The notes under the pieces are model-generated. The model saw nothing but the letters and a program-made list of their open reading frames with translations, made no database searches and was not told the origin of the DNA. DNA of 63,100 nt, the filler included, from Sphacelaria rigidula (Eukaryota): assembly GCA_964200075.2 (NCBI GenBank). It is 7 parts of 7 records of this genome, joined end to end, with 100 filler letters (N's around TTAATTAATTAA, not from the genome) between each part and the next. Parts side by side here need not be neighbours in the genome. Positions count along the whole stretch, not along the records: positions 45,146 to 54,073 come from CAXNAA020009732.1; 6 more parts are not named here. One strand, 5' to 3'. Below are positions 15,409-57,100 of the stretch, piece by piece. Position 1 is the stretch's first letter; each line of letters begins with the position of its first letter. The position numbers and the translations under genes are program-made.

Positions 15409-15480
15409 TAATAATAATAATAATAATATTGGCGATAAAGCAGTAATAATGATAATAATAGTAATAGTGATGATAAGGAT
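15330..15480. repeat. (AAT)n microsatellite
   Basis: Direct observation. Confidence 0.95.
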
Positions 15481-15484
15481 AATA

Positions 15485-17457: not shown

Positions 17458-17843
17458 GAGCCTTTCATGGCCAACATTTGATGAAATACGGGACTTGGCA
17501 GATTGGGCCTCTTCGGGAAGAACTGCTATGCTTTCCAAGAGATTCTATTTTGCGCACGTTTCCGATTTTTCGTGCACCCGGTTTTACTCTTGGCCATATC
17601 CCCGTTTTTTTCAGTCGCCCAAAATATTTTCGCGCTGTCGTAAAAATCACACACTTTCCCCCGACAACTTGAAGAGTTTTGGGGCGACCGGAGAAACTCG
17701 GAATTCGGTCAAAAGCAAAAGTGGACGCACGAAAAATCGAAAGGATGCGCTAGAACCCTCTTGGGAAGTACGAGCTGGACCAGTAGTACATCCCGCATTT
17801 GCATGTCCCACCATAACTCGTCCAGTTTTTACCAAATGAGCTC
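17458..17843. mobile_element. Old degenerate foldback element
   Basis: Imperfect inverted arms (CGATTTTTCGTGC / GCACGAAAAATCG; GTCGCCCAAAA / TTTTGGGGCGAC); GAG..CTC ends. Confidence 0.55.
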
Positions 17844-17959
17844 GACTTGAGCATATCGTGAACTGCAGACCAACCTGGTAATGCACGGCACCGCCGCCGG
17901 TCGATTGGCGAAGTTTTGGCGATGATGTTATTGTACTGCATTGAGTACCGGGAACGTCT

Positions 17960-18059
17960 NNNNNNNNNNNNNNNNNNNNNNNNNNNNNNNNNNNNNNNNN
18001 NNNTTAATTAATTAANNNNNNNNNNNNNNNNNNNNNNNNNNNNNNNNNNNNNNNNNNNN
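17960..18059. other. Artificial contig linker
   Basis: N44-TTAATTAATTAA-N44. Confidence 0.98.
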
Positions 18060-26403: not shown

Positions 26404-26988
26404 CTGTTCGAAGGAAAGATAAAGCAGTAACATCATTAAGTTAGTGTCTCGTAGGATCATCAGTTGGTCGTGAGCCTGCACGTTCTGTTTGTTATATCCG
26501 CTTTGGGCCGAGCTGATTACAGCTTTTGTCGTCCAGTGGATTCGGCTGGTTGAGGTGGGCAGTCAAAATAATCGGTAGAAGAGGGACCCTGAGAGCTTAC
26601 ATGTAGCCTGAAGTGAGCTGTGGAGTTTTCGTGCGGAACAGCTCACACGGAATTCAAACTCTACGAACGCTCGTATCGCATGAACCCCCAAACACTGGTA
26701 ACGTCATGCTGCGGATTGCACACGAATGTGAGCGGGGTGCGAGAGCGATATAGGTAGTGTTCCGAGAGGAATAATACGTGGACGGAGGTGAGCGAATCAA
26801 AACTTGAAGGGGAAGGGGGGCGGGGGGGGAGAGTGTACTCATGATCTGGCATGCCGTAGTCATATGACCATGAACCTTGCACCCCTACAAAGCCGGGACG
26901 GAACATGCCACAAACTTTGTGGGGGGGTGTACTCATGATCATGCATGCCATAGTCATCAGACCATTGACCTCGCATCCCTACAAAGCC

Positions 26989-27088
26989 NNNNNNNNNNNN
27001 NNNNNNNNNNNNNNNNNNNNNNNNNNNNNNNNTTAATTAATTAANNNNNNNNNNNNNNNNNNNNNNNNNNNNNNNNNNNNNNNNNNNN
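26989..27088. other. Artificial contig linker
   Basis: N44-TTAATTAATTAA-N44. Confidence 0.98.
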
Positions 27089-30464: not shown

Positions 30465-32935
30465 GAGATATACCATGTCCCTGGTGATGGCGTCATCCCC
30501 GCTAAATTGCACGAGGACTATCTCGAGCACTGCCGCGAAGAAGATGTTGAACAGCAGGGGAAACAGTACACATCCTTGTCGCAGTCCCTGTGTGACTTCA
30601 AACCACTCCGAGAGCTCCCCGTCGTCCATGCGTACGCGGGCCTGCATACTGTCGTGGAATTGGCGGATAATTGCTATCATCTCATCCGGAATACCAGCTC
30701 GGGCCAGTATCTACCACAGAAGCTCTCGGTCGACCGAGTCATATGTCTCCTGGAGGTCGACGAAGCACATGTACAGCGGTATTCATCGCCGCCGTCCCAG
30801 CTCCTGGAGTCGGCGTACTACGAACAGCATGTCGACAGTGGATTGATCAGGTCGGAATCCGCACTGTTCCTCCGGTCATATCCCGTGTGTTTCGCAGTAG
30901 TCGCTGAGGCGGTTGGCCACTATCGTCAGGAGCACTTTCCCTGCGTGCGATACCAGAGAGATACCCCTGTAGTTATTACGGCTGGGCCGGTCCGAGTTCT
31001 GGTACAGCACCTTGATGGTTGTATCTTTCCACTCCTGCGGGACCTCCCACCCGTTCCACATCTCGACCAGAATGGTATGGAAGCGTTCGAGGACGATGGG
31101 CTCGGCGCGGCCGTCGATCTTGAGTAGCTTCACAGGAAGGAAGACGTGTCCTGGCGCTTTCCAGTTGTGCATCCCTCGTACTGCTCGTCTGGTTTGCTCC
31201 AGTGTTGGTGCTGCCCCAAGCGGTACTGAATCCCCGGTGGTTGGCGCTGCCGGTCGCTGTTTCACCTCCTCAATGATGGCTGGGTTGAGCGTGGGCGATT
31301 TGACGTTGAGCAGGGCGTGGAAGAATCTCGCCCACCGTTTGAGGATGGCAATTTTGTTCCTCAGTAGGACGCCGTTCTCGTCCTTTAGGAACTGCTGCCC
31401 CCCGTATTGCCTTCCACCAGACCCATCGATCTCCTGAGGTGTTTGTACAAGCCTCTCATGTCGCGATCCTTGTAGATCGCTTCTAGCCTTGACACATACC
31501 TCTCGAGATGTGCATGGATGCCGTCATCTACCGCTGCACGGACGTTCTTACACACGGCTCTGAGTTCTTTCCACGATGCTGGGGTCCGGTGATGCTTCAT
31601 CAGTTGGCGTGCCTCCCGTCGTTTGGCGAGCGCTGCTTCCACTGTTGCTCTCGTGCCGGGATTTTCACACCATTCCGGCATACGTGGTATCCGTGCCTCT
31701 TCCTGTCTGCGCTGCTTCGAGGATAGCTTCGGTAAACTGCTTCGCGGCCGCCGGTACGGTGGTGATTGGCTGGTATTTTTGCTCGGCGAGGTTATGTGGG
31801 AACCTCTCGGTCACGTGCCACCTTGCCATTTCGGTCTGCAGCTGCTGTCGACTAAATTGCCGCTGCTTCGACTTGGTGCGTACTTGGCGGCTGTGGGCCA
31901 GGCGGCCACCGAGGTCGACAGTGGCCACCACCATGTTGTGGTCCGAATCCGCTTTAGCCGGGGGTGCGGGTTGGGGGTGTAGGACTACGGTGCGTACTCT
32001 ACCTCGGTGTTCCTGCCGGGTAAGGATGTAGTCTATGCGCTTGAAGTCGATCGTGCGATTTCCCACACCACCGTTGTATGTGTGCGAGATTCCGCCTTTG
32101 TGCGTGCTAAAGAAGGCGTTCGTGATGGCTAGTTTATTGTCGGTTGCGAAAGTTAGCAGAGGTTTGCCGTTATCGTTCAGCTTATCACGTCTATAGGCGC
32201 CTAGGACCCCTTCGTCCTCTAGGCCCTCTCCTGCTTTATCCGACACTTTCTACGATAGCCCCCCCCCAAAAAAGTGCATGTTTTGGGGGGGCGAAATCTC
32301 CACGTAAATCGAAATGGGAAAAGCCGCGCACAACGAGCAGCTGGGAATTCCCACGCTTGGGTTCACTCTAGCCAATGTCGCCAATATGAAGCGCTTGATG
32401 CAACCTGAACACAAACATCAGTCGCTCTATGGCCATTTGTTTAGTGGCACATTTGGGCTGGTTTGGGGGGGGGGCTATCGTAGAAAGAGTCATCCCCCGT
32501 CCGCACTTTGGCATCCATCAGCGCATACACACATTCCTTCGACGGGATTCGCTGTACGAGATCGTCAAGCCCATCCCAGAACGCTTGCTTCGTTTCGTTC
32601 TGGACGACTTCAGTTGGTGCACACGAAGCTACGAAATTGATCGCTCCGATCTGCCCCGATATTTCAAATCGCATCGCCCTGAGGCGCTCGCCAACGTACT
32701 CAGTGGTACAGGTGGCATTATTACGAATCGACTCTTTCACGGCTATTTCCACACCGTGTTGCCCACCTGACTCGCTCCCACGGCAGAAGACTCTGAACCC
32801 TGCTGCTGTACAGTCTGTTCGCCCCGCCCTTCGTGTCTCCTGCAGTCCCACCGCCGAGATGTTAAGCCTCGCAGCCTCGTACAAGACGCTGTAGTTTCAC
32901 CCCCATCCGTTCGCCCCTTTCACAGCTAGAGAGTC
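30465..32935 (-). mobile_element. RTE-like LINE fragment (AP endonuclease + N-terminal half of RT)
   Basis: [57 protein letters not shown]; ends before the catalytic YADD motif. Confidence 0.93.
32242..32491. mobile_element. MITE with 4-bp TSD inserted in the LINE endonuclease
   Basis: TIR GACACTTTCTACGATAGCCCC / GGGGCTATCGTAGAAAGAGTC; ATCC on both sides; removal restores the frame VRTGDKAGEG. Confidence 0.9.
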
Positions 32936-33160
32936 AAACGAATTATTCAAACAACGAATGAGTACGCCCCAAGCACCACCGCCCCCCACCCCCCACACCC
33001 CCCCACCACACATGTCACCAAAATCGACAATGACTACGAGAACGGAAGACGCAGCTCGAGCAGCGAGCACGAAACTGAGCGAATCGATCAGCGAAAGTTC
33101 GCCAAATCTACCGCCGACGGCATTGTAAATATCGAAAGCTTGTAAACGCTGCCGCACAGC

Positions 33161-35958
33161 TCATGCCAATGATGCAGCAGCAGCAGTCGCTCCCCGGGTG
33201 CGTTTCGAAGGTGGCGAGGGCGGGCCACCCTCACGTACGCGCTGATTTGCCCGGCCACCTGGGGTACCTACTGTCATGGACGTACCGCGTCCACCTCCAC
33301 CTCCTGTAGCAACTGCACCGCGGGTAACTTGTGTAGTGTGCGCAACCCTTCCATGTCCCGAGAGATCACTTCCACGTCCTCTCGCAGACACCCCACGCCT
33401 ACCTCCTGCAGGTACCCTACACCCACCTTCTCCTACAGGCATCACGCGCCCACGCTCTGTAGCAAGCCTCCCAGGCCCACCTCTTCTCGCAGGCATCCCA
33501 CGCCCACCTCTTCTCGCAGGAATCTCATGCCCCCCTCTCGCAGGCAAACCACGTCCACCGTGTCCTGCAGGCACCCCACGATCACCCTGTGCCGTAGGCA
33601 TCCCACACACACCTTTCGCAGATACCTCACGCCCACCCCTTTCGGAGGCACTCCACGCCCACCCACCCCATACCCATCACCACCCACTCCTTGGCCACTA
33701 ACCGGGGCTTCACCATGACCCATGCCCCGTCCTTCACCACGGCCTGCAGCGGCAGCGGCAGCCTCCCGTGCTGCCTTCTTGGCTAGCCGTGCGGTGGCAC
33801 GATCGGCCTTTGCTTGCTCTTCGTCCCGTCTTTAACGCCCGTCCTCCTTGTATCTTGCCATGACCTCGTCACAAGTGAGGAGGCCTCCCCGGGCACTTCC
33901 ACTCGCGCACCTGGAGATCGATGGACGCCTCCTTGCTTCTTGATGCTTCGTGTACCAGCCAAACATGACCGTACTAACCCGCAGTCCAGGCGTTGTGTGG
34001 CCTTGGCTTTAGAGCTTGCGCACAGCACGATCACCGAGTGCAGAAGCGAGCACGTTCTCGCTTATCGTGACTGGCACGTCCGCCAAAGGTGACCGAGCAC
34101 CCTGCAGCCCCGATCGTTGCGATCCACGCCCGCGTAGCCTGTTCAGAGCCTAGTGTATGTCCACAGGCCACAGACCTGCTCCCTCAAACGATGCCTAGAC
34201 CTGTGACGGCGTGAAGCTCAGCGAAAATGCGTCTCGAATCACTTTGACCATGTCCACTTTAACGGGAATCTTGCCACCGTTGCGGCGTGGGAACGACTGC
34301 AATGTTGACGTAATCTCCCTCTTGAAGATCCCAAGTGCTGCCACGTCCAGGGGCTGTGTGATATGTGATGAATGCGACGGGAACTGAAACAGCTCAATAT
34401 TCAACGACATCGCCAACTTAATCGCTTCGAAGGTGAGGTGGGAGGCTTGCCCATCAAGCATTAGCACGTGCGGCTTCCCGTCATCCTCCCCGGTGCCAGC
34501 AATGTGCTTGTAGAACGCCTTTATGTGGTTTATGAACACCGGTCCCTGCATGGAGGATGACTCGGTTGAAGCGTACAACGCGCCCGGTGGACTCACGCCA
34601 TTGACCCACGCCGCCTGCACTCGCTGCCCTTTGAAAATGATCAGCGACAGAATCACCTCGCCCGCCGCGTTGATGGTGGCGACGGCCATAACATTCTCGC
34701 GACAGTTCGAGCGCTTCGTGCCGACGACCTTTCGTCCTTTCTCGGCGATGATCTTCCGCGCCTTGTTCCCTTGCGGAGTAACACCTTCGGCGTAAATATC
34801 CACGGGTGACGTGTGTAGTAGGGGGGGGGGGTATTCAATGATGTCGCTGTACAGAGTACCGAGTATTACGTCGAGTATCGGGTTGTACGCACAGTACTGG
34901 CACCACCTCTGATGACGGTGCTTACGACAACTCTATAGACAGTATAGGCAGTACCTCTACAAAGCGTGAATACAACCAACAGAACACGCTGAGACAGTAG
35001 TACGACACGCACACACAAACGCCAAGTGCTGCAGAGGATAGGAAAGCGGCGAGGCTAACACCGTTTCAAATGCGTCATATAGCTCTAATCTAAATCAGAG
35101 CACACAAACAACAACTCCACAGCTGCAGCCTCTGGCTCTTGGTCTAGACAAATAACACGGGATCTTACAAATTGGGGATGGATCTTCCATTGGGGATGAA
35201 AAAGCCAGAGAATAAAAATCTTCGAATCTACCCCAAATGTTCAACATATAGTTCCATTTCTTAACCTACAAATAGCTATTGACAACTGCGACACGCCATC
35301 GAAATTTGGATTTCGATCGCTGAAATGTTGGGGTCCTTGATGAAGAACCAATTTCAGAACCATTTTGGCGTCCGTTCGGACACCCGAAATTCCCCAAAAT
35401 TGGTTTTTCGCCTAGGACCCCAACATTTCGGCGATCGAAATCCAATTTTCTATGGCGTGTACCAGTCGTCAATAGCAATCAGTGGGTGAAGAAATGGAAC
35501 CATATTTCAAAGATTTGGTGTAGATACGAATATTTTAATTCTCCGGGTTTCTCATCCCCAATAAAAGGTCCATCCCCAATAAAAGACCCATTCCCAATAA
35601 AAAATCCATCCCCAATAAAAGATCCATCCCCAATTTGTAAGATCCATCCCCAATTTGTAAGATCCCGTGTTAAATGCGTTGTGTCACATAAGCGGACCGG
35701 CTCTTGACATACTGTAAAGCACCTGTCTCGTCAGTGTTCGAAATGTGGTCGGCTGCTGGCTTCTTGTTCACGTAGTCCCGCCATGCGGCGTAAAACTCTC
35801 GCGTGCAATCCTCGTGATCAGCCACAACTCGGTCGATCTCGTAGATGCGGCTGCTGCGCTCTGCTAGCCGCGGGTGCCTCCGAAGGAACAGTTCGAGCCA
35901 TTTTCGGCCTGGGCCTACTGCCGGGTCCCATGGCACCGGTCGATTGACAGGGGATTCT
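33161..35958 (-). pseudogene. pogo/Tigger-like (CENP-B HTH + DDE_1) transposase pseudogene with one intron (34785-35722)
   Basis: PGRKWLELFLRRHPRL, NTDET/G, VLMLDGQASH, FPSHSSHITQPLDV, SFEGAGLWP, LLTCDEV; in-frame stops downstream of the DDE domain. Confidence 0.88.
35155..35670. mobile_element. Foldback MITE (TA TSD) inside the transposase intron
   Basis: TA|ACACGGGATCTTACAAATTGGGGATGG ... CCCAATTTGTAAGATCCCGTGT|TA; arms about 200 bp. Confidence 0.88.
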
Positions 35959-36017: not shown

Positions 36018-36117
36018 NNNNNNNNNNNNNNNNNNNNNNNNNNNNNNNNNNNNNNNNNNNNTTAATTAATTAANNNNNNNNNNNNNNNNNNNNNNNNNNN
36101 NNNNNNNNNNNNNNNNN
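36018..36117. other. Artificial contig linker
   Basis: N44-TTAATTAATTAA-N44. Confidence 0.98.
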
Positions 36118-37149
36118 TTGTTGTTTATTCATTTATTCCTTTATCTGTCGCACTTTCCCCCCCCCCCCCCTCCTCGGGACGAGTTCGTGGTCTCAAGGGA
36201 TCAATACATGTCTCCTTTGTACCCGCCTTGCATCTTGGTCTCGCGGATTGGGTCAGCACTTCCTCACCGCGTCAAATAAGCTCAGTCAACTACTTTTTTC
36301 ACTCACGTTCTCACGCTTTTCATGGTGGAAATCAGATACTACGAAGAAAAAGCCCGACTTGTCGGAAAGTCGAACACTCGTTCTCTGCACCATGATGGCG
36401 ACAGTCGGACCATTACAGCACCGGGACGCAATGTGCGCTAGAATCCTCACATCGAGTACAGCCAGTCATTTCTAGATGGCAGAATCCGCCAAGTCGTCTT
36501 CTCTGGCAGAGACGTCGTCGAACTTTCTCGGGCCATTGCCTCAGGCTTGTCTCGTGAACAGGTTGATTATTCGCTACATAGCATCGTTGCTTGGACCGTT
36601 TAGCTTACGTATGATGTCCCAACGCCTGGTGGACGCATTGAACGTCATCAAACAGGACATCTACTCCATCCCATATTAAGGGCTTCCGCTTGAACCACGA
36701 ACTAATCGAGTCGATGAAGTCGTTCAAAATATATACTTCATTTCGTCAACATGACATTGGTTCCTCATCTCGCGAGTAGTTCAATACTTCCCCGATATCG
36801 TCAAAACTCATACTTAGCCTATGCCGTTCGCCGTTGAGCAATGTGTCTGGAATGCTTAAGTGGCCGTCCGTCGGTCCTTCTCCCAAATCATGTTAATTGA
36901 TGCATTGATTGATTGTCGCACTACCTGATCCATTGAAAATTGAGCCCTAGTGCCAAAATAGACGACGGCGATGACGACGACACCGACGACGACGACGATC
37001 TTTTTATCAGCTTATCCTCTATGCCACGTTCGATTCTTGGTGATTCCATGTTGATAACACGAAGGCCATTGGCGGCGTATCTGGCGCAGATCGGTCCCGT
37101 GCCGCAGCGTGGATTCCACAGGATGGCGGTCGTTGCGCGCATGATGTTT

Positions 37150-41369: not shown

Positions 41370-43487
41370 AGACCCTTGCTGTCGGCGGTTGATGGCGTGG
41401 GTCTCGAATGCAACGACATGCAGTTGATCGCAGAGCACTCTCGTCTCCCCTCCCGAGTTGTGATTATCCATGACCTCCTGACATCGGAATAGTTATTAGT
41501 TATGGGAAGGTACTCGTGCTGTACCGAGCTGTCCACGCGACCACCGTGTGTATGCTGCAGATTGCCTATGCGCCACGCTAGCGACAGTTAGGTCACCACC
41601 ATAAGTATCTTTTTTCACTTCGCATGTCAAAAAGGTCTCTACAAGTGTTTGATCTCTCATGCACCCCCCTCAACTGGCGTGTGGCACGCCCTTCTGCTCG
41701 CGCGCCCGGCTTGGGGAGGTCGGCGAAAATCAGCGATGAATAACACCTCCTAAGTTCAAATTGGATATATCTGTTATTGCCGCCGCAGCACCGCCCTTGC
41801 TGGCATGTGTGTGACAGAGAACAGTAGTAGCGGTGACGGGAACATTGCACTACTTTCCCAACATGTTTTCTAGCGCACAGAGGCGCGTCCTGTCCAAAAG
41901 GAGAGCAAAAGAGAGATCGATCTTCGCGTTGGCGACAGGCAAGAAGAGACGACTGAATCTCTCCGCACGTCGATGCTCTGGCACATGGGAAAATGGCGCA
42001 TCCTGGTGAGATCGTTGATGCCAGTCTCTCGAGAGTTTGCTAGTCGCCGAGCGGGGACACACAAAGGACACGGGCGAGGAGCTTCCTCTCTCCCGTTGCT
42101 TCTCTCTCATATCGTCATCGACACGCGTGTACACCGCATTCGTTAGGTGCCCCTAGCCACAGGTGCTCAACTGCTGCGGACATTTGGGGGGGAAGATGGC
42201 TTCGCTCAGTCGGAAGTGTTTCGCGTCTTCCCTGCAAGAGAGAAATTCCACTTAACCACCATTTTTTTTATAAACATCATTTTCCAAGATCCACCGACCT
42301 TTGCTGTCGGCGGTTGATGACGTGGGTCTCAAATGCAAAGACAAGTGATTGATCGTGAAGTACTCTCGTCTCAGCTTATAATGCATGATCTCCTCCCATC
42401 GGAATAACTCTGGAAAGCTACTCGTACTGTACCGAGGTGTTCACGCGACCAGCGTGTGCTCCAGATTGCAGCATGGACGGACTCCTATGCGCCACGTTAG
42501 CGACAGTTAGGTCACCATCATACGTATTTGAGTCATCCTACGATAGGGGAGGGGGTATTTGGTTGCACGAAAGAAAAAGCTCGTAAGTGTGTCAGACATC
42601 CTTCCACACTTACGTTGCGCTTGTATTTGGTTCCAAACGGTGTCAGGCAGGATGGATGAGCGTTATTGATCTCCAACAAGCTTGTTCGAATAACCGTTGC
42701 TGCTTTCAACGACGATCTGACTCGAAAGTTCGAACAACAAATGACCCAAAATCCCCCCCCCCCTATCGCAGGATGACTCATTTGTTTTCACTCTGCATGT
42801 CAAGAAGGTCTCTCTCTACATGTGTTTGATCTCTCATACACCCCTCAACTGGCGTGTGGCACGCTGTTCTCATCGGCCACCCAGAGGGTCAGATGTGGGA
42901 AAAATCAACGATGAAGAACACCCCCCAAGTTCAAATTGAATCTATTTGGTATGGCCGCACCACCGCCCTTGCTGGCACGTGTGTGACAGCGAACAGTAGT
43001 AGCGGTGACGGGAACATTGCCCTGCTTTTCAATGACATGTTTGTCAGCGCACAGAGGCGCGTCCTGTCCAAAAAGAGAGGCACAGAGAAATCTATCTTTG
43101 CATTGGTGAGCTCGACAGGCAATTGTAAGAAGCGAGGAAAACTCTCCGCAGCTCGATGTTTCGGCACATGGAAAATTGGGCACGTGCTGGTAGCATCGAT
43201 GATGCCAGTCTCTCGAGAGATTGGTAAACGCCGAGCGAGGACACACTAAAGACACGGGCGAGGACCTTCCTCTCTCCCGTTGCTTCTCTCTCTGGTGATA
43301 TCGTCATCGACACGCGCGTACACCGCATGCGTTAGGTGCACCTAGACACAGCTGCTTAAGTGCTGTGGACATTTGGAGGGGCAGATAGCTTCGCTCGGCC
43401 GTGAGTACTTCGCGTCGCCCCTGCAAAAAAGAAATGCCACTTCAACCTCTTTTTTTAGATGGACCCCATTTCCCAGGATCCACTGTT
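41370..43487 (+). repeat. Diverged tandem duplication of a ~0.93-kb unit
   Basis: TTGCTGTCGGCGGTTGATG at ~41375 and ~42300; units collinear; same right end at 27089-27161. Confidence 0.85.
42530..42779. mobile_element. MITE with GAG..CTC termini and 4-bp TSD
   Basis: GAGTCATCCTACGATAGGGG / CCCCTATCGCAGGATGACTC; TSD ATTT; absent from the paralogous site near 41605. Confidence 0.9.
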
Positions 43488-45045: not shown

Positions 45046-45145
45046 NNNNNNNNNNNNNNNNNNNNNNNNNNNNNNNNNNNNNNNNNNNNTTAATTAATTA
45101 ANNNNNNNNNNNNNNNNNNNNNNNNNNNNNNNNNNNNNNNNNNNN
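45046..45145. other. Artificial contig linker
   Basis: N44-TTAATTAATTAA-N44. Confidence 0.98.
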
Positions 45146-45294
45146 TAGAATCGTTAGGAGCCTCTGAACCAGACAAAATTTCGCGAAAAAAGTGCACCCC
45201 TACCGTAGCATTGCTCACAACATCACCAGATGACAGCAACAAGAACAAAATAAAACAAACACAAACAGAAACACCAAACAACACAACAAGATGG

Positions 45295-45800
45295 TTATCT
45301 CGCATTACGTGCAGTAGCTGATTGGAATACTCCAGCTTGTGATGATGAGAAAAAAAAGGGGAAAAATGATCGAAAATAATACGAGAGACAAGAAGACAAA
45401 GCCAGGCTCGTTTCCGGGGGGGGGGGGATGCACAGACGAAACAAAAACAGACAAGAAACCACCGAACATAGTGCTTTACGTATCATGCGTAGGCTATGAT
45501 GAGTTGGTGTTGGTACTGTCGGTGCATCTTGGCCTGCAGCTTTCGCGTGCCGTATCGCTGCCTCTGCGTCATCCTTTTGGCACCAGTCCGCCATGAACCC
45601 TTCTGCTCCCTGTTCAACACAGCTGTGCCACTCTACTACATTCAAGGCTCTGGTAGCCCACCCCTGCCATTCGATACCGAACGCCTTCATGTCTTCCATG
45701 TGTTCTTGTCTTTACATTAAAAAAACGCTCCGACCTCTGCACGGTACTTCGTAACATCGTATTGGGCATCTGATGCGGATGCCTCCCGTGGTTACAAGCC
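45295..45800 (-). mobile_element. RTE-like LINE C-terminal fragment
   Basis: EDMKAFGIEWQGWATRALNVVEWHSCVEQGAEGFMADW. Confidence 0.65.
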
Positions 45801-45869
45801 ATCTACCCCCCCAAAAGGTGGTGAAGGATCGCTACTTGTGGCAATCAGGAAAATAAAATCCTGAAAAAT

Positions 45870-46630
45870 TGCCTTCTGGGTTCTTCTGCGCGTCGTTCAA
45901 GACCCCAAGAGACACTTAGGCGGATGTTGACACCTTGGAATGCCTTGCTCTTCCAGCTGAGACGATTCCAGGACACCTTTGCGTTTCCCGGTGGTGTCCG
46001 CAAATCTTGTGGGCAAACCTGGAGTGATGCTACGGAAGGGGTGCACAGATATTTCATGAGGTTAGAATTGTCAAGAGCCCTGTATCTCATTCAAAAAACC
46101 ACTCATGAAATATGTGAGAGTACGCCAGGATTACTATTCCGATGTGCTAGATGCTCCGACCCACACTGTCGTACATCTAGAATCGTTAGGAGCCCCTGAA
46201 CCAGAAAATAATTTGCGCAAAAAGTGTATCCCTACCGTAGCATTGTTCCCTGCGTTTTTGCCCAAGAACAAAAATCGAGACTAAAGAGACCTGCTGTTTG
46301 ACTAAAAAAACGCGAAAAACGCTGAGGTGTCCTGGAACCGTCTCATCGAGTACATCAAAGGCTTTCCAAGGTTTCCGCTTAGTCGTCAGTTAGGGCGTAA
46401 AATGACGCACAAGGGCCAAAAGGGCGGTTTTACGGGATATTTTTTGTTTGTTCCAAGGTTCAGACAAATGATTTGACCGGTCTCCGAGAAAAAATGCAAG
46501 TTTGGGCAAAATAAAAACCGCGGCCGCGGGAAACACTCACAGGTGAGTTGGAGCCGTCTCAACGAATACAGGAAGGCATTCCAAGGTGTCAGAATCCGCT
46601 CATCTGTTTTTTAGGGCGTAAAGCAGTTTG
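45870..46630. mobile_element. Palindromic repeat family E, compound copy interrupted by a family D MITE
   Basis: Same arms as 1495-1865; one forward and two reverse arms. Confidence 0.68.
46022..46248 (-). mobile_element. Sola2-like MITE, family D, nested in a family E repeat
   Basis: TIRs; perfect 4-bp TSD CCTG. Confidence 0.85.
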
Positions 46631-48059
46631 AGAAAAACAATCGGCTCCTGTTGGAACACTTCCCCTCTTGCATCCTCGAGTCGGGCGCCACGTTATTTCA
46701 AGACGTATGTGCAGAAAAGAAGATGGGACACGAACGACTCATGCTTCCATAGGGGAGAGGAGGAGGAGGAGGAGGAGATATGTTGGCCAGGATTTCTTAC
46801 GCGAAATTCCACTTCAAATCGTGGTTGAAAGACAATTAATTGCTGTCCGGACGCGCTTGTTGCCGGTAAGTAAGGCTCATTCATACTGCTCGACACCTAC
46901 TTTTACCCAAATACATGGGCACCGCGAGTGAATAAGGTCGTGTGACACACTTAATGAGCCTGTTTCTTCGTGGAACCAACCCCCCCCTTCCTCATCGTTG
47001 CATGACTCGAAAACCGATCGCGGTCATGGATACGGAGCATGATAAATCCAGCAGCACAACTAAGGCCCATATACGAAAAAGAGCACCCCGGTATGGTCGG
47101 GTTCGTTTGCTCTGATGATAGCACGCTGCGCGTCGAGTGCGCCCTCTTTATTCATGCCATGTCGGTGGCTCAAGAGTCCCCTATTGCGAATCGGTTGTCT
47201 TCAACCCCTACTAGCACGTCAAGTTGTTCCTATCCGTGAAAGCAGCAGGAAGTGGCGTGCAAAACTGCAAAACCCCACACCACATCACTGTACTTGCTAT
47301 AAGGTACAATGACTGTTGACAGTGATCATGAACAGATGAGGGCATGCTGTTGTTGTCTTTACATAAATAAACCCGTATCGATATCTGCGCACTGCTTGCT
47401 TCTATTCCCGCGGTGGGCACCTGATGCGGACGCATGCCGTCGTCACAGCCTACTACTACCCAATATAAGGCGGACTGAAAATAAAAATTTCCGGTGCCGC
47501 AGGCGACAATTCGGACTACTGGAGGCAGAGCCCAATGTTTCCACTCGGCACGCGAAGCCAACAGAGGTGGAGCCAAAATCATGAACTAAAGATCAGCAAC
47601 AGTAGCGAGCAAGATCGCATGGAGTATCGAATCACTACACGAAAAAAACTATCCATCGACAATTCTGACCACAGATCGCACCTCCCACCACATCGACGCG
47701 CAGTGCTCTGTGCGCCATTAAACTTCGATACCCTCCGTGAATACCGGAAATTCCGATTCGGTCAGCCCAAATCCGCAAGTTCTCGTCCACTGTTATTTTT
47801 TCCTTGGCTGAATTCGGTGGTGTAACATGTGATCACGGATTTCGGTCCAGCATACCATTCATATCCACCACGGCTACATACCAAAATGACTAGAGCTCGG
47901 AAATGGCACCACTTATAACTGGCCATCATCATCATAATGGTATTAGAGATGATGGTTACATGAAAAATTTGGATCGTGGTTTCAAACCAGTATTTACCGT
48001 TACCGGCTTGATAAACTGTTACCGGCAACGTATGCTAATTTCGGCGCGTTACGGGAGGC

Positions 48060-48760
48060 CCATTGAGGATTCCTGCTGAGGTGCCTCAATAAGCATACCT
48101 CGAGCCGCAGCGCCCCTGACCACCACATCATGCTGCCATACCACGAGGTCCTCGAACGAATTAGCTGCGAGTGCATTGGGGCCACCGTGATGAAGCGAAC
48201 CCTCCTACGCGCCGGCCGCGTTGGGCACATGCAAGGTGAACACCTCCCCAACATCGTCATGCGTGGAGTCATGGTTGGGGGGGAAAGGAGGGCAGGCCGA
48301 CCAGCAAAGCGCCTACAACACTGTATCACGGACTACTGCTCGTAGATCGGAATAAATGCGACATCGTGGACGCAGGTTGCCCAAGATGTGTCCGAATGGT
48401 TCCGAGTTGTAGAGGAGGAGGCTAACACGTACATGACAGCCTGGACGAAAGCACACCACGCTAAGGAACTATTTGCTGTGCTACCACTAGATCTCCTCCA
48501 GTGCCTACCGAGGAACCTCAAGAAGTAACCAGTAGTCCATCGGGTAGTGCACTCACTAGTACATCTGCGATCTCTCCCAACAGCTGTGGTGGTGGTCAGC
48601 GAGGGTGCCTGGGGTTGTTTCTCGAGTTGCCTCCCGCCAGGTGGCCGTGCGAATCCCTTTGTGTCATTTGCTTTTTTTTCTCTTTTTTTTTGTTTCATCC
48701 CGTTGAACTCAGGGAAGCTACTTCTCATGTTTTCCCTTGGCGTCTCTTTTCTTATTTTCA
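48060..48760 (+). mobile_element. RTE-like LINE C-terminal fragment
   Basis: LPYHEVLER...RAGRVGHMQGEHLPNIVMRG...RRAGRPAKRLQHC...WTQVAQDVSEWFRVVEE. Confidence 0.75.
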
Positions 48761-49435
48761 TCTTGGTAATATTTTAGTTGATTGCGTTCGTTCCTGTAAA
48801 TAGGCTGGAGTCTCAGACAGGAAGGATAGAGGACCAAATGTTTCAAAAGGAATAGCAGGGACGGTATTGGAAAGACGAGCCTACGTCCGTGACCACGGGT
48901 TCGAGAGATCGGACAATTGTGCAGAAATAATATTGATAAATGCCACATACACCCCTTGAAAATTGGACTAAAGTCGACGTATTTTTTAGCTTTAGTGCAG
49001 CCAAATCGCGTAGAAACGTGCCTCCGGCACGGCGCCTACAGCGGAGCCCTCCGGGGGCGCCTCCTCCTCTGCTAGAGGGGGGCTTTTTGGCTCGCGGCTG
49101 TGCCAATCGATGACCAAACCAACATTCACCTTTTTATTGCTTAATAATGAGACAAAGCAATTCCGAGTCCTAAAAATGACACATGTTAAACCCTGGCTCA
49201 GTGGCCCACCATACCGTGCCGTGTGGAGATATTGAAACAACCCCAAGGCCGCATATGGCTCAAAGAACATCGTCGTGCGGGTAAGACATCTAGGGTAGCA
49301 CGACAATCTCCAAATACCGTCACAGACGGAATGATGACTCAAATTTATACACAGCGTTCGTCAGAGAAGCAGATCGCTCGACCTGATGGAAGCAAAACCT
49401 GGTGGGATACCGATTTTCTGGGGTGCTTGACCATG

Positions 49436-49803
49436 ACTGTGTGTGTGTGTGTGTTGTCGTCCCATTTATTCTGGGCACCAGTCTACACCTTTCGGTACAT
49501 GTGGGCGCACCAGCCGGGGTCACACAGGAGGAAAGTCAACACGCGAGCTTTTTCTCTTCAAGTTGTTTTCAATACCCCACCTTCCTTTTGCGGTGCTTGC
49601 CTTCATCCTTTATCGCGAGAGGGGTCCAGCGGTCCCTTTTCCTCGTCGACCGTGGAGTCGAATTTTGTGTACCCACGACATAGTCGCTTTTCACTGTTGG
49701 GCATGGTGTAAAAAAAGATTCCAGATCGCTCCGGGAATCGAACTCCTCTACTCAACCATCAGAAGGTAACGAGGTTACCAACTGAGCCCCCGGGGCGACC
49801 GGC
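49436..49803 (-). mobile_element. tRNA-derived SINE with (CA)n tail
   Basis: GGCTCAGTTGG A box, GAGTTCGATTCC B box; 3' part resembles 57240-57312. Confidence 0.72.
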
Positions 49804-49852
49804 TGTATGTAGTATAATAGTGTTGGAAGATGGGCACGAAATACGTAGCCTG

Positions 49853-50103
49853 GAGGGATGCTACGGAAGGGGTGCGCGAATATTTTCTGAGGTTACAATT
49901 GTTGGGAACCATTTATCTCATCCAACAGTTATGAAATATGTGAGAGTACGCCGGGACTACTATTCCAAAGTGCTGGGGATATCCCGAATGGATTTGCAAA
50001 CGGGGGTGCCCTGACCCATATTCTTGGGCATCTAGAATCTTCAGGAGCCCCTGAACCGGACAAGATTTCGCACAAAAAGTGCAACCCTACCGTAGTATTG
50101 CTC
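49853..50103 (-). mobile_element. Sola2-like MITE, family D
   Basis: TIRs; flanks CCTG / CCCG; partial copies also at 45146-45216 and ~51655-51779. Confidence 0.82.
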
Positions 50104-51551
50104 CCCGGTTTGATGGATTTTCTTGAAATATCGACACAAAAGAAAGAGATGATACCGATATTTGTAGATGGCTCCTATACGGACGATACGCACGATACTC
50201 GATCCCGATGCGATGCTAGACATCTTTTGTATCGGTCAACCCGAGGAACAGCAGTAAAATACATTGGATTAGTGCAGGTTCCATCCAGTGTACCACAAGA
50301 GTGCGCTTTAGCAATGGGCATGAACAGCACCCTGTATGCCTGTTTGATGAAGTACTCGTGCACCGGCAAGTTGATCAGAGCAGTACGACGTGCGTGGTTA
50401 TTGCTTTGCGTCCTCAATAAAACGTGCTCATGAAGATGGTGTTGATGATCTTTCTGTTCCCATCGATCAGCGCATACAGTACCCCACGTTCAAAGTGGGA
50501 AAATCGATGATTTCTTCGTGATCGGCGATTTTCTCAAGTTCTTTCGCTTGCCACCGCTCATCACATTGGGCACCTAAAAATACTGGTATCCGCTCCACAT
50601 TCCAAGAAAAAAAATCATCTCCACTCTATAATGAGTGACGTACGAGCTGACCGGCCATCGGGGGTCCTGCCACTCTTCAGCCCACATTCTGACCAATCCG
50701 TGTTTTCGGTGGATCAAGCCCGTCCCGATCGTATGTATGTAGAAATGAAAAACTTGTTTTTTCCAAGTTTACCCAATTATTGCGCTAGTGCCGAATAACT
50801 GTGTTTCACGGTCAGTAACAGCCTCCTGATAAGCGGGGTATCTACGCGTATCGCCTGATAGCATCGATCAACACTAACTTGGGCACTGGGGGAGAAGACA
50901 ATCTGTTCATTTCCCCAAATCTTATCGACGCTACTCGTAGCAAATTCGGGTTTTGTCAAAGGGTACGCGAGGAAAACCCCAGCTTAGACCGTGCCCATTT
51001 CGAACGTGGGGTACTATACCTCCACTCCATGCGCACATTTACTGCGTGTTTCTCGGCAGAGACCCTTCAAATTGAACATGCTGAACAGAATACCTCAACA
51101 AGTAGACCAACAAAATATCGAGCTCTGATTGCAAGTTTATAATGCGAACAGTTTCTATGAAACACGACGAAACTTCCACTTGAAATTCAGAGGAAGAAAA
51201 GCAACAAAATACACCCATTAACTTCCCCACATTCCGAAGGACAAACAGCTCATCTGTGCCAGATTCCGAGGGGAAATGAAAAAATAATAATCAACGACCA
51301 GGACGACAGACTTACGGAACTGTACTTCAGCACGGCTCTCATGACCGCAATTATACTTCGCCACAGGCCCACACAACGGGCGGAAACTCCCGCTGAAACA
51401 GCTACCGCCTCCACACGCAGGTGAAGATTGGATACTCTGGCGCTCATCCCTCATTACATCGGAAATGACGTCGCTACACGCGGCAGAAGCGAGATACGGC
51501 ATCGGGCTGCACACCTTGCGGTTGCTCCGTCGCACGACTCCTGGGGGGGGG

Positions 51552-51615
51552 CGTACTCATTTGTTGCTTGCCTTAGTCGTGTGACCATTGACCACGCATC
51601 CCTTTCGAGACGGAG
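51552..51615 (-). mobile_element. Short poly(C)-tailed repeat with 17-bp direct repeats
   Basis: CGACTCCTGGGGGGGGG at 51535-51551 and 51616-51632; homologues at 1-70, 8273-8317, 8806-8870, 9031-9105, 14522-14586, 26830-26988 (two), ~32950-32970. Confidence 0.8.
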
Positions 51616-52796
51616 CGACTCCTGGGGGGGGGTAAGTGAATCATAGACCAGAAGGGACCCCGCGGAGTAATCCTGGCGTACTCTCACATATTCCATGAGT
51701 CGTGTTTTGGATAAGATACAGGGCTCCCAGCAATTCCTGTCCCAGAAAATACTTGTGCATCCCTAACGTGGCATCCCTCAGGCGCTTGCTCTCGATAAAT
51801 AACGCTCATCCATACTACTTTAGACCGCTTGTAACCAAATACAAGCGCACCGCGAGTGTTTTGGGTCGTTTGGCGCGTCTGTGAGCACATTTTTTTACTT
51901 GTCGTTGAAATGCCCACCATGCACAAGCTCTCGGAACATGGGGACCCAAAGTGGAGAAGGAACGAGAATCGAAAGCCGATACTCGGTACTGATTCGAATC
52001 AACACATTCCGGGTGTTCAGCCGACGGTTCTGATTCATAGAATCGCCGTTTCAAATCGGCAGCTCGACATCGATATCCGACACTGGTCTACTAAATTTGT
52101 CAACTGTCGCGCGAGAGCAGCCGAACTCGGGGACATCAACAATCATTCTACAACGACCAAGGGTCTGTCAAGAATATATTTCGGAACACGTGGGCCTCAA
52201 GATCGAAAAAACGAGTTTTTGAAGGGGGGGGACACCCAGCCTGCTGTCCCCTAGTTTATTGCATGTGGCGTTGGCGGATGCGGTCAACTACAGTGTACAG
52301 AGATCCTTGGCATGGAGACCGCTGAGATGACGGATACACCGCCCCTCCAAGCTCATCACCCACTATGATTACATTTATATAATCACGTTCTGTGTCGTGT
52401 GCCCCGATCACCTACCGCTAGTAGTCCGGGCAAATTTGGCGAGGCATGAGATAATATTGCTACTTTGCCTACAGGCTGCCGCTACTGTGCGTTCGTGTAT
52501 CGTACATGAACGTGCGTGAGCGTTGCCGGCATTGAGTAATCGGGACAGGGCGGGCAAGGAGCAGAAGCAAATCTCGAAAGCCCGGTAGAATTTTCGGTTT
52601 TCGTCAGTGTTTGTTGATCAATTTCCTCCAACAATTTCAACAAGAACGAAAAATTCACAGTGGGATCCCCCCCAAAAATTCGAAAACCATACCTGTAACA
52701 ACTTCTGAAAAAATTCTCTCAACAGACCCTTGCAACAATTCAGATTAGTCAAGATGGAGTTTTACAAGGCACAAGTCAGGCTTCCATGACTGGTTA

Positions 52797-53325
52797 GGCC
52801 GGATGTTATGGCAAACAGATTTTTGGCCCACGGATTGTCCACTTTTGGGACGTTTGAGCCTCCTTTTGCCCCCCAAACCAAGAAAACCGCCCACACACGT
52901 CTCGGACACTTTGCATCACCCCACAGAGAGGAGCCTAGTCTGCGTTTCAGATTCGATTCGCTCCGAGGTTTCGAAATTGGCCGCTGAACAAAACTTCGTG
53001 CGCAAAAAACTGTGCATGTCAATCCCCGCCGGTTTGGGATTCCTCTCTTTGGGGTGATGCAAAGTGTCTGAGACGTGTGTTGGCGATTTTCTTGGTTTGG
53101 GGAGCAAAAGGAGGCTCAGACGTCCAAAAAGTGAACAAATCGTGGGCCAAAAATCTGTTTGTCATAACATCCGGATTACCTTTTCACCCCCAAACAGGGA
53201 AAACTGCCAACACACTCTTCCCCGTGTGTTGGTGGTTTTCCCTGTTTAGAGGTCAAAAGGTGGGTCGAACGCCCCAAAAGCGAACAATATGTGGGCCAAA
53301 AATCTGTTTGCCATAACATCAGGCC
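52797..53325. mobile_element. Foldback MITE with GGCC termini and a duplicated right end (PIF/Harbinger-like, tentative)
   Basis: GGCCGGATGTTATGGCAAACAGATTTTTGGCCCAC is inverted at ~53140-53175 and again at ~53290-53325. Confidence 0.72.
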
Positions 53326-54073
53326 CGAGACCGATTCTAGTGGGAGCCGTTCAAAACTCCTGTTTAAAACTGTCTTTTTGGCCCTTCGTCGTCGTTTTAC
53401 GCCTGAAAAGGGGGCTAGGCTGATGTTGACGCCTTGGAATGACTTGCTATACTCATTGAGGCCGTTTCAGGGCAACTTTGCATTTCCCGTTGGCCGCAGT
53501 TGTATTTTTGGCCGAACAAGGATTTGAAAAAAAAAACAGTCAAGCGATAAAAAAACAGCGGGAAATTTTCATCACCTGACCGTTCTTTACTGTTCCAAGT
53601 CCCAAGTGCTTCTACTCGTAGGCTCCATAGAATGTGCTCTTGTTCCTAGTGTCCAAATCAGCGCCAGGTTGAGGTCTGCTAACGCACGCCATGCCAAGAC
53701 CAGCCTTCCCCCGTCCCAGCTTTGTCAGGGCGGACCCCCGATGGGGTTGTCAACGTTACGCTGCAAAACACGCCACTCGATGTCTAAGCGAGGCAAGCAG
53801 GTTACCGATTTTTTTTGTGCGCTCACGTTTCTTTGTTGTAACCATGACGGTGATCGAGCTAAATCATGTTGTGCGGCGTGGGAGAACCTCAACTCCGCAC
53901 AGTGGGGATGATCGTACCACGTGGTGTCATGGTGAGGCACCCGTGAGGCAGTGTCTTCGGGTCGAACAATCTTAGCAGGATGCAGCTCATCCTTCAGGCG
54001 ACTCGCCGAACACACCACGGCGCTTCGCGCTCCGTGATTGATTACGAGCCTGATCCGGCGAAAGCCCGGCGTG

Positions 54074-54173
54074 NNNNNNNNNNNNNNNNNNNNNNNNNNN
54101 NNNNNNNNNNNNNNNNNTTAATTAATTAANNNNNNNNNNNNNNNNNNNNNNNNNNNNNNNNNNNNNNNNNNNN
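54074..54173. other. Artificial contig linker
   Basis: N44-TTAATTAATTAA-N44. Confidence 0.98.
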
Positions 54174-57100
54174 AAGACAGCGAAAAATTAACGGAAAAAA
54201 AAAACAAGGGGGGGGGGGAGGGGGGAGACGACACAAAGAGGGGGGGGGGGGGGGGGGGGGGGGACAGGCACGCCCTTGTCGAATTACTTTAGATGATTAG
54301 ACCGTTCAACAACAAAAAACAAAGTGAGGCATCGAAAGTAGCTAGGAACTCGGATACTGCGACCAAACGGCTACCCGAGAGTGTGTCGTGAGCTCTGACT
54401 CGGCCAGTTGGACTCATCCCATTCTGGCACACCCAGTAGGGCCTGCTAGTAGGGCTTGCAGTTGAGGCGCACGTTAATACAAGAATAACCCATAACATCT
54501 TCTTCTTGCTTGGTCGTCCTGAAATTTGTCGTGCGCCTCGCTGACACCAGGGTGAAAACAACGATAGCTGGAACGACACCCATTTCGTCGCCGTTCAAAA
54601 GTTGTGACCAGAGACAAATGATTGGCAAGACACGGACAAGCACGTGCGAGATATTCCAGCTATTGAAAATGTTCATATCTAGGATTCTGACCACGATGCT
54701 TGATACTTCGGAGCTGACGTTCGGAGAAGAGAGGAGCGCATTCAGTATTCGAAAGCGTCACTTACACTGTTTTTTTTAAATCTCAAAAGACACCTCGGTA
54801 TCGTCGACTCGATCGAACGGATCCAATTGCCTTCAAACACGCGTGAAGGGAGAGCTGCGGTAATGACGACCTTCGAGAGCCTACTTGCCCTCTGCCTAAC
54901 ATCCAGGTTTCAACTCACAAATCTCGACCCAAAGAATCGTCAGACACTCTTTGGTCTCCTTCACTGGCTGAGACCGACTCGTAGCACTAAATCCGCATAC
55001 GACAAGAAGAAAAAACGATCATGCGCTTGCCACTCGTGTTTGCGTGCAGGCAGGCGACTGCCGATCCGAACAACACGACACAATAAACATCAAGACGCAC
55101 CTACTCCCTTGTACCAACGCTCCATACACAGCTGATGCGAAATTACGGCATTTCCCCGAGGTTCCTTGCGACGCGCTGCGGCCTCTCTACGCTACACTCT
55201 CACGAGAATTGACGCGTCACAATATTCCAGAGGACACGGGGATGAGTAGTCCCTCTCTCTTGGGGTCGGCTCAACGCCAAAACCTCACCTGCTGCTGGGA
55301 TGTAGACGTGATTATTCCATCTGTTTCCATCACAGCGTAGGCTTTGCCCAATGGCCCTTCGAATCCTGACATGATGCCGCTTGGAAAAAAAAAAGAGGGG
55401 AGACTAGCCCCGGACACGGTGGGTAAGCAGAGTTGGCGTTGGCGATACCTGGTGCAGCGCAGGAGAGTAGAGTGGTGGCGGTGTGAGTGAAATGCGTTCG
55501 GGAAAAGGCTGGGGATACGATTGGTTCCGTGCCCCGGTGGCTCACCTTTAATGTATACTAACGACAGTCGGGGCGTAGGTCGTTGGTTCGAATCCCGACA
55601 GTGCGTAGCGTGACCCGAACACGTGACAACATATCTTTTGAAAAAATAAAAATAAATGGTGAAAGTGGACGGCCTGCGACAGTGTTCATGTAAATGGTTG
55701 ACGATAACATAGTGCAACGCAGAGATGGTACCTGCGGAGAGATGAGCTGATTCTACGGCAAAATAAAAATCGCGTTGACTTCATACCAGGAGGTGCAAAA
55801 AACATGGGCTCGTCCTCAGTTCGAAGGCCTAAAAAAATCATGATGAAAAAAAAACGAACTGCCGGCCGTACGTCCTAACAGACCTACCTACCGGACAACA
55901 TACGAATTCGCGAATACCAAATTGTCTCTCACGCCTGTAACGCTTTCGCAATTGTGGCTTCAGAATGATATTCTACGAACAGCTTTAGTTTCGCAGTCAA
56001 CGGTGGGCACTGGGAAGCGACGAAGAAAAATCTGTGCTGGGACAGCTAGGGTATCCTTGCATCCAACATCAAGTCATCTTGTGTGTAATTTTGGCCGCAG
56101 TGGACGTGGAAACGAGTGACCGTACAGCCAGACGTATGCGAGAACGGAAAATAACGAGACAAGAAAACAATTCCGGCAGTATGATCCACACGGTCATGCT
56201 CGACCCAATTTGGATGTCGCACCAGAAGTCGATCCACACAACGATATTTTGTGAATACAGCCACCCACAACTTCAGTGCATTTCAGACTACGGTACATAT
56301 ATTTCGATTGCACACGGCCTTCTACTCCATCGCTTGGAACTCATGGCGGAAACTGCGGCTTGATGGCCCGAATACCTTACTCCATGGCCAGCTTCCGTAA
56401 GTATCAGAGATGGACCAAGGAGTGGACCGATGACGCTATGAACAAGGAAGAACACAAAAAACGGGATTATAAAACTGCGGATGGATTTGGTTTTGAGGAT
56501 GAGCGTTGGGAATTCTCATACGCATCAATATATTTTTGAAAACGATGCAAACGCCCTCTCCGGTCGTAGTGTGTGGCCTCGCTCACCCTCAGAAGAGGGT
56601 CCATCCGCATTTCTTGACATTCCGTGTTAGCAGCGGGTTCTGAAATATGGGAACGGATTTTTGCTGAAGAATGAACGGGGACCGACTTCGCTCGGAATAA
56701 TCACGGAATTTCAAAAAAATGCGGGTGGATTTGTTTTCAGGATGAGCTAGGTCATGCATCACGGCCGGAGAGTACATTTTCATCGTTTTTTGGAAGTATT
56801 TCGATGCCTTTGAAGGTTCCCAAGGCTCATCTTCAAAACAAGATCTATTCGCAATGTGTAAATTCCCGAGTGACGAACTTATCAGCATATTTTTTCCAGC
56901 ATGCCACGCGGAATGTATGATGGTGCCAAGTAAGATCTCATCGTCTGTTTCCATAACTCCAGTTCAAAATCAAGACAGCAGCCACTAACCAACATGAGAC
57001 GAGTCGAGAGCCTGAATTATACGCATCCCTTGCTGTACGTGCGCGTAGAATACCCTATGGCAAACCACACCCTGTCCGAGAATCTAACTATATTGTCGGA

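Follow-up and report, generated by a model that had tools for sequence, protein, structure and literature searches.

How a fragment of 64 nucleotides (nt) came to lie between two identical copies of a 17-bp sequence, one of which sets a run of nine C residues directly against the 3' end of the fragment, is the question raised by a locus of Sphacelaria rigidula (GenBank assembly GCA_964200075.2). The fragment lies on the minus strand at 51552-51615 of the 63,100-nt stretch of DNA that was analyzed here, filler included (the window). The original prediction, made from this DNA, described it as a poly(C)-tailed short retroposon-like element inserted by target-primed reverse transcription. We consider it very probable that the fragment is an extreme 5'-truncated insertion of an APE-type long interspersed nuclear element (LINE; APE, apurinic/apyrimidinic endonuclease) whose genomic copies end in a stop codon, a 3' untranslated region (UTR) of 5-6 nt, and a C-run. 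The window consists of seven pieces of 8927-8930 bp, and neighboring pieces are not contiguous in the genome. Linkers of the form N44-TTAATTAATTAA-N44 separate them at 8931-9030, 17960-18059, 26989-27088, 36018-36117, 45046-45145, and 54074-54173. The site itself is in piece 6 (45146-54073, from CAXNAA020009732.1), well away from the ends of that piece.

On the plus strand, the sequence CGACTCCTGGGGGGGGG occurs at 51535-51551 and again at 51616-51632, with identity of 17/17 in both copies; their starts are 81 bp apart, which leaves an interval of 64 bp (51552-51615). The minus strand gives the order C9AGGAGTCG, the 64-mer CTCCGTCTCG...AACAAATGAGTACG (CTCCG...ATGAGTACG), and C9AGGAGTCG, exactly as the original prediction had read a 64-bp element between perfect 17-bp repeats. 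In the orientation of the element, the upstream copy of this target site duplication (TSD), identified by repeat search and supported by shuffles, is at 51616-51632 (minus strand), and the downstream copy, identified by repeat comparison, is at 51535-51551 (minus strand) and is composed of C9 (51543-51551) and AGGAGTCG (51535-51542). The C9 at 51543-51551 abuts the 3' end of the element and is inseparable from a tail. Eight of the 17 bases of the direct repeat are not part of the homopolymer, and the match is exact at both element boundaries. With up to three mismatches tolerated, the window contains three matches to the 17-mer, whereas 100 shuffles averaged 0.07 and none of them reached three. 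No terminal inverted repeat (TIR), the mark of a TIR DNA transposon or of a miniature inverted-repeat transposable element (MITE), was found at the ends of the 64-mer, in keeping with the claim that the element has none. Logan contigs of four sequencing runs (X1, X3, X4, and X7) were placed on 51100-52100, the labels among the runs containing the locus including 'algae metagenome' and 'protist metagenome'; no RNA data set was among the runs listed. Among the contig pieces listed, the left junction (51100-51565) is carried by one piece each in X1 and X4, which come from two studies. The insert and its flanking duplication are confirmed as real.

The original prediction also held that an autonomous partner encoding a reverse transcriptase (RT) and ending in ATGAGTAC(G/A)CCCC should exist, and such a partner was found. 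Metagenome contigs were scanned with an 18-letter pattern, which gave mostly chance matches, and an nhmmer profile was then run on 119 metagenome stretches and the viral locus L120. The full element was present there in only two stretches, L038 and L066; six weak partial matches were treated as chance. Viral contigs gave one chance match in the first scan and none in the second. Both L038 and L066 carry the full 64-mer followed by a C-run, and approximately 1200 bp upstream of it are common to both at 89.6% identity. In L038, the 64-mer ends a single open frame of 514 codons (P0001) with the C-terminus ...GAPSRKGCVVNGQMTKASNK, and the stop codon of this open reading frame (ORF) is the TGA inside ...AAATGAGTACG, located 5-6 nt before the C-run. 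P0001 contains an RVT_1 domain (E value of 7.7e-14; 52.3 bits against a cut-off of 29.6), an FADD box, and a CCHC motif. The second scan yielded L121, a contig of 5259 bp (G + C content of 0.455 over 5149 bases) with an intact frame of 1382 amino acids (aa) that ends with ...ASNK, TGA, GTACG, and C13. L121 is filed under a bacterial metagenome-assembled genome (MAG) and is evidently eukaryotic binning contamination.

Two full-length relatives, P0002 (1360 aa; 87% identical to P0001) and P0003 (1328 aa), possess Exo_endo_phos, Exo_endo_phos_2, and RVT_1 domains and the same C-terminus, with Exo_endo_phos scores of 47 (P0002) and 55.6 bits (P0003) upstream of RVT_1. By eye, the N-terminus of the L121 frame resembles that of P0002. 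An organism name is attached to just two relatives, P0004 and P0005 of the brown alga Ectocarpus sp. CCAP 1310/34, which are 71% and 53% identical to P0001, respectively, and are annotated only as 'unnamed protein product'. Their C-termini, ...GAPSRKGRVANGQMTTASNK and ...RGRVVNGLTAK, show the same motif, so that the Ectocarpus LINE ORFs are alike in this respect, a likeness that refers to the proteins only. A phmmer search of PDB gave human L1 ORF2p as the best sequence match (6.6e-21) and R2 at 8.8e-20, which does not separate L1 from R2, and a protein atlas returned only generic endonuclease and RT clusters.

By tblastn, residues 1342-1360 of P0002 fall on 51616-51560 with 89% identity, and the same C-terminus falls on 8806-8862 with 95% identity. 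The 64-nt fragment at 51552-51615 (minus strand), which at the nucleotide level is 97% identical to the ends of the LINEs in L038 and L121, holds the last 19 codons of the ORF (APSRKGCVVNGHTTKASNK), the first codon starting at 51616, followed by the TGA stop at 51557-51559 and the 5-nt 3' UTR GTACG at 51552-51556. At the junction point, the LINE reads ...GGTG/CTCCG in L038, L066, and L121, and the last G of the TSD (51616) could equally be the LINE base before CTCCG, which amounts to a junction microhomology of 1 nt. The features of an APE-type LINE are present: an RT ORF joined to the repeat, an APE domain N-terminal to RT in the relatives, a 3' homopolymer, 5' truncation, and the lack of an LTR or TIR. 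On sequence comparison, the 64-mer is the 5'-truncated, extreme 3' end of an autonomous APE-type non-LTR (LTR, long terminal repeat) retrotransposon, an alga or protist LINE. Thus, of the description as a short retroposon-like element, the retroposon nature was retained and the idea of a separate short element was not, because the unit equals the last 19 codons of the LINE, its stop codon, and GTACG.

Further copies of this 3' end were found in the window by self-BLAST and a small nhmmer profile, and they fall into families A and B. In addition to the fragment under study, BLAST and nhmmer detected three family A copies. The copy at 8805-8930 (plus strand) has a 64-66-nt body (8805-8870) with 95% identity and a degenerate C-rich tail that reaches the end of the piece. 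The copy at 8272-8317 (plus strand) is more 5'-truncated, with 39 nt (8272-8310) followed by C7, and sits directly after ...TGTCGCACTTT, a motif that precedes a C14 run elsewhere (36157). The third 64-nt copy (14523-14586; 90% identical) lies within 14492-14608 on the minus strand and has the tail CCGC7GC7GCC (14492-14522). Its 5' side abuts a C23 run (G23 on the plus strand, 14586-14608) into which its first C merges, an arrangement that fits insertion into a pre-existing C-run. By nhmmer, a diverged copy of approximately 34 nt (32933-32966, with ATGAGTACG at 32958-32966) and its C-rich tail were located at 32933-33004 (plus strand). Family B copies, all found by nhmmer, were seen at the start of piece 1 (1-70, plus strand; ...GGGATGCGAGGTCAATGGTCTGATGACT...ATGAGTACA at 1-66 followed by C4), at the start of piece 2 (9031-9105, plus strand; 9031-9098 followed by C7), and at the end of piece 3 (26807-26988, minus strand), where two copies stand head to tail, one at 26928-26988 with C7 (26921-26927) and the other at 26834-26899 with the tail CTCT-C8-G-C6.... 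A family B LINE end thus lies exactly at the start of pieces 1 and 2 and at the end of piece 3, and with three family B copies placed at the very ends of pieces, the assembly breaks at these repeats.

The original prediction had named 5' truncation among copies as a check, and the 39-nt and ~34-nt copies have lost the end far from the homopolymer and kept ATGAGTACG and the C-run. Together with the longer sequences, the copies form a length series of ~34, 39, 64-66, at least 1200, and ~4150 nt with the common 3' end ATGAGTACG plus C(n), which, as far as the sequences tell, is a 5'-truncation series.

The C tail is a constant feature of these copies. A 3' end in which a C-run or C-rich stretch comes after ATGA(G/C)TAC(G/A) was found in all 12 copies examined (five family A and four family B copies of the window, L038, L066, and L121), which upholds the claim of a poly(C) tail at the level of genomic copies. 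In eight of them the tail opens with 4-13 consecutive C, and in the remaining four, C makes up 20-21 of the following 30 nt; the C content of the window is 25%. Four more matches to the 9-letter end pattern occur without family context and were treated as chance or internal. The homopolymer follows the stop codon after a 3' UTR of only 5-6 nt (GTACG/C). As a C tail cannot come from polyadenylation, it must be transcribed from the source copy, and so templated, or supplied by the target. Runs of G or C are in excess in the window as a whole: G8 has 104 matches against 1.93 expected, at 18 G/C runs of at least 8.

The long runs include G23 at 14586-14608, G31 at 14727-14757, G24 at 54240-54263, and C14 at 36157-36170. 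Several sequences that end in a C-run look like further retroposon 3' ends, namely ...AACGAGAATGA-C31 at 14727-14757 (minus strand), ...AACAAATGACCCAAAAT-C11 at 42753-42763 (plus strand), and ...TGTCGCACTTT-C14 at 36157-36170 (plus strand). A C12 run at 45416-45427 (minus strand) is inside a long stop-free frame (45298-45711, minus strand) that resembles a LINE ORF C-terminus by eye and has no Pfam match. A C-run followed by T(T)CAAAAACTCG..TTTCGATCTTG.GGC was noted at 67-110 (plus strand), after a family B copy, and at 52184-52231 (minus strand), without one; this motif could represent a further repeat beginning at a C-run.

A nucleotide core, GGGATGCG.GGTCAATGG.C....G.CTA.GGCA.GCA, is common to families A and B, although an in-frame TAG lies upstream of this core in each of the four family B copies (frame assigned by eye). 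Within the 64-mer, a candidate 3' hairpin, GGUC-ACAC-GACU (family pattern GGYC-NNNN-GRCU), is located at 51575-51586 (minus strand) with one covarying pair; of the 11 predicted pairs this is the one that covaries, from UA to CG in two of ten sequences. Of the five read variants listed for the 64-mer, four (at 51579, 51581, and 51582) map to the hairpin loop, and the fifth, at 51575, converts a G:U pair into G:C. Single-sequence folds of either strand gave z-scores of -0.38 to 0.68, no better than those of shuffles. These data hint, weakly, that the candidate hairpin could be a 3' recognition structure like that of the 'stringent' LINEs.

The sequencing reads indicate that the unit is very abundant. 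While flank depth was 57.7 in X1, 11.8 in X3, and 28.5 in X4, the bins over the 64-mer summed to 20.3, 3.76, and 11.1 million, respectively, or 3.2-3.9x10^5 times the flanks, figures that as summed contig depth are not copy numbers and are read here only as 'order 10^5'. In X7, flank depth was present in only 14 of 30 bins, yet 1.9 million was recorded over the 64-mer, so something else also contains the family. On the tail side, the loose ends consist of G-runs (at least 1185 X1 contigs). On the other side, the commonest continuation is ACCGTTCCTAC (570 X1 contigs), the reverse complement of GTAGGAACGGT, which is the LINE sequence just upstream of the 64-mer in L038, L066, and L121; longer LINE copies are therefore present in this organism's own reads. 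Furthermore, in at least 174 X1 contigs, a copy is linked at its far end directly to the G-run of its neighbor, which amounts to head-to-tail arrays. The letters between array units (none, A, ACCGTT, and others) indicate several closely spaced 5' end points, and in 94 X1 contigs the G-run is directly at 51615. A loose idea that the recurrent 64-nt boundary is set by microhomology at the only CC dinucleotide of the 64-mer was set aside, as boundaries at +1, +6, and ~+12 are also common.

The original prediction that a C-ended RNA was reverse transcribed from a primer in a genomic G-run is supported by the TSD, the C tails, the RT partner, and the truncations, and we infer the following course of events. 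The plus-strand junction reads 5'-CGACTCCTG9 / CGTACTCAT.... The endonuclease of the element would nick the G-run strand at 5'-CGACTCCTGGGGGGGGG^TAAG-3' (plus strand of the window), so that plus-strand 51535-51551 would become a primer of the form 5'-CGACTCCTG9-3'OH. The freed G9 3' end could then form G:C base pairs with the 3'-terminal C-run of the LINE RNA and serve as the primer for reverse transcription. Copying into complementary DNA (cDNA) would halt, as expected of an enzyme of low processivity, or the enzyme would switch templates, after 64-65 nt. The 5' junction would be closed with the one-base microhomology (G before CTCCG in the LINE and G as the last base of the TSD), and once the opposite strand had been nicked as well, at a distance of 17 nt, repair would leave the 17-bp TSD C9AGGAGTCG. 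Every new copy, ending as it does in a C:G run, would itself be a good target, which would explain both the head-to-tail arrays and the excess of G/C homopolymers.

Several observations weigh against this account. The two C-runs at the site are of equal length (9 and 9), so the site gives no sign of whether the tail was brought by the RNA or the run was supplied by the target. Among the window copies and L121, a clear long TSD was seen only for the copy at 51535-51632. No TSD was detected at the 8272 copy, that of the 14523 copy is ambiguous as C-runs lie on both of its sides, and the 8805 copy ends at the end of its piece. Neither the 5' end nor a TSD of L121 was found in the contig stretch examined and the last 110 contig bases. 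The evidence for a full-length element comes entirely from other records (two metagenome contigs and one contig of a bacterial MAG), the window holding only stubs, and the abundance rests on summed depth as noted above. Among the contig pieces listed, none bridges the right junction or the whole site. Finally, no empty-site allele or paralogue was seen among the 15 of 66 joints listed and the paralogues of a neighboring repeat. That repeat (51666-51779) starts 33 bp from the insertion, so its paralogues give no empty-site paralogue.

Of the other explanations, the one that deserves most discussion is that the unit of 64-76 nt is a separate non-autonomous retroposon, comparable to a short interspersed nuclear element (SINE) and made up of a 3' recognition module and a C tail, which the LINE mobilizes in trans. 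Such a unit would be transcribed, for example, from the head-to-tail arrays and not truncated from full-length LINE RNA. This explanation would account for the common starting base of all three 64-mers in the window, for the 94 X1 contigs with a G-run at 51615 together with the many joints that link 51613-51616 to the next G-run, and for the retention of the nucleotide core in all four family B copies despite the in-frame TAG upstream (by eye). However, the joints have several end points (+1 'A', +6 'ACCGTT', and ~+12) and not one, copies of 39 and 34 nt exist, and the sequence is identical to the coding end of the LINE. Moreover, no promoter-like head was recognized, and nothing resembling a pol III head derived from tRNA, 5S, or 7SL RNA was found: ARAGORN predicted no tRNA genes, and Rfam gave no family at the gathering score and nothing relevant at E values up to 10, the unit being LINE coding sequence. 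We therefore regard a SINE-like origin as unlikely, while giving it some weight.

The remaining explanations are far less probable. If the direct repeat were not a TSD, it could have arisen by slippage or unequal exchange between G-runs in a tandem repeat (a minisatellite of ~74-81 bp) or by templated repair, and head-to-tail copies with G-run spacers are indeed very common in the reads, and two family B copies stand in tandem at 26834-26988 in the window. At 51535-51632, however, there is a single unit, whereas a tandem duplication of 81 bp would yield two 64-mers; the eight non-homopolymer bases AGGAGTCG/CGACTCCT are outside the family consensus, and the consensus of the loose ends past the G-run is unordered (agreement of 0.36-0.46). 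This origin is accordingly quite improbable. We give slightly less credit still to an assembly or sequencing artefact, either poly-G read ends from two-color chemistry or a chimeric join through a high-copy repeat. Although the assembly breaks where pieces begin or end in family B copies and the right junction is unconfirmed among the contigs listed, the side and strand of the run do not vary across the window, L038, L066, and L121, four sources that are independent of each other, a chimeric join would not yield matching 17-mers on both sides, and the left junction is present in contigs of two studies (X1 and X4). The copies in the window occur in both orientations, as they would if the 64-mer were the TIR of a GGGG-ended DNA transposon or MITE. 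The original prediction had named inverted pairs as the sign of such an element, and none turned up: in the window, the 64-mer lacks both an inverted partner at constant spacing and a TIR at its ends, the truncations are one-sided, and the sequence forms the 3' coding end of an ORF with an RT, so that this possibility can practically be dismissed. A 5'-truncated LINE insertion thus remains our preferred reading of the site.

Other repeats were noted around the site and elsewhere in the window. The repeat of ~114 bp that adjoins the site (51666-51779, plus strand) has paralogues at ~46022-46135 (minus strand), 49850-49961 (minus strand), and 3546-3660 (plus strand) with 75-80% identity, and contig depth over it is 10^3 to 3x10^5. 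Read in minus orientation, the repeat includes ...TGTGAGAGTACGCCAGG, a sequence that recalls the LINE end, but has no C-run. A second repeat island is at 51800-51881. Piece 4 is a nest of transposable elements (28803-29210, plus strand; 30375-32896 and 34198-34932, minus strand) that includes an RT_RNaseH domain of an LTR retrotransposon, a LINE with 26-31% identity to the P0002 group and a weak RVT_1 match below the cut-off, and a DDE_1 transposase fragment. A perfect inverted pair at 32246-32487, CTTTCTACGATAG-C9 ... G10-CTATCGTAGAAAG, bounds ~200 bp and interrupts the endonuclease-coding region of another, minus-strand LINE; its origin as a foldback or template-switch event is possible. Low-complexity tandem repeats at 15149-15529 and 15973-16986 have frames that translate to long I runs and FIHSFIH-like repeats, and G + C content falls to 0.39 in 16001-18000.

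A wider proposal, which we put forward tentatively and hold to be somewhat less likely true than false, is that an algal LINE lineage has exchanged the logic of poly(A) and T-rich sites for one of poly(C) and G-tracts. For mobilization, a C-run and the last ~60 nt of the element, with the small hairpin, stop codon, and GTACG, would suffice; priming would take place at genomic G-tracts, each insertion would add a new G:C tract and so a new target, and the resulting arrays of 64-76-nt stubs, on the order of 10^5 copies, would be the main source of the excess of G/C homopolymers. A literature search, partly at the level of titles and abstracts, found no description of a poly(C)- or poly(G)-tailed LINE, and as Repbase and Dfam were outside its scope, this does not establish that the element is undescribed. 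The part of PMC3812793 that was covered contains neither 'poly C' nor 'poly G', and the covered part of a study of LTR centromere elements (bioRxiv 10.64898/2025.12.07.692804) has nothing on LINE tails. In genome annotation, these 64-mers are best masked as the 3' ends of a LINE rather than handled as a novel element class.

The role of pairing between the target and the 3' end of the RNA in LINE integration is still argued, and the evidence comes mostly from poly(A) elements and a few microsatellite-tailed ones. If the proposal is true, a natural and highly successful poly(C) LINE would be a clean contrast case, with a tail that is not made by polyadenylation, an obligatory G-run primer, and products that are mostly tiny stubs. 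It would also account for the long G/C runs that litter the genome and for the assembly breaks at these repeats. Long G/C runs can form G-quadruplex or i-motif structures and are troublesome for polymerases and assemblers.

For L1 and Alu, target-primed reverse transcription takes place at T-rich nick sites and involves a poly(A) tail. The element described here resembles them in having APE and RT in one protein with a C-terminal CCHC motif, a 3' homopolymer, a TSD that begins with the homopolymer, and frequent 5' truncation; it differs in that the homopolymer is C and not A, comes only 5-6 nt past the stop codon, and cannot be made by polyadenylation, and the resemblance does not imply membership of the L1 clade. 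'Stringent' LINEs, such as eel UnaL2 with (TGTAA)n, CR1 with octamer repeats, and the I factor with (TAA)n, combine non-A simple-repeat tails with a 3' stem-loop recognized by RT. A non-A tail that is part of the element, a candidate hairpin, and the conservation of the 3' terminal 50-60 nt across families A and B, even with the in-frame stop of B, are shared with this group. In contrast, the tail here is a mononucleotide C-run, and the evidence for the hairpin is weak, with a single covarying pair and z-scores close to 0 for the folds. Certain R1-group LINEs, including Waldo, Mino, Kibi/Koshi, and TRAS/SART, are specific for microsatellites or telomere repeats. As in those elements, insertion would be directed to a simple repeat corresponding to the element's 3' end, which allows target DNA to pair with the end of the RNA; unlike them, the present element would target a G:C homopolymer, a specificity suggested by one TSD and the arrays. 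A parallel in arrangement is Zepp of Chlorella, a LINE with poly(A) tails whose copies are nested head to tail by insertion into the tails of earlier ones. The 3' fragments described here are likewise joined head to tail through the tail, both in the read joints and at 26834-26988, but the joining homopolymer is C and not poly(A), and the arrays consist of stubs of ~64-76 nt in very high number.

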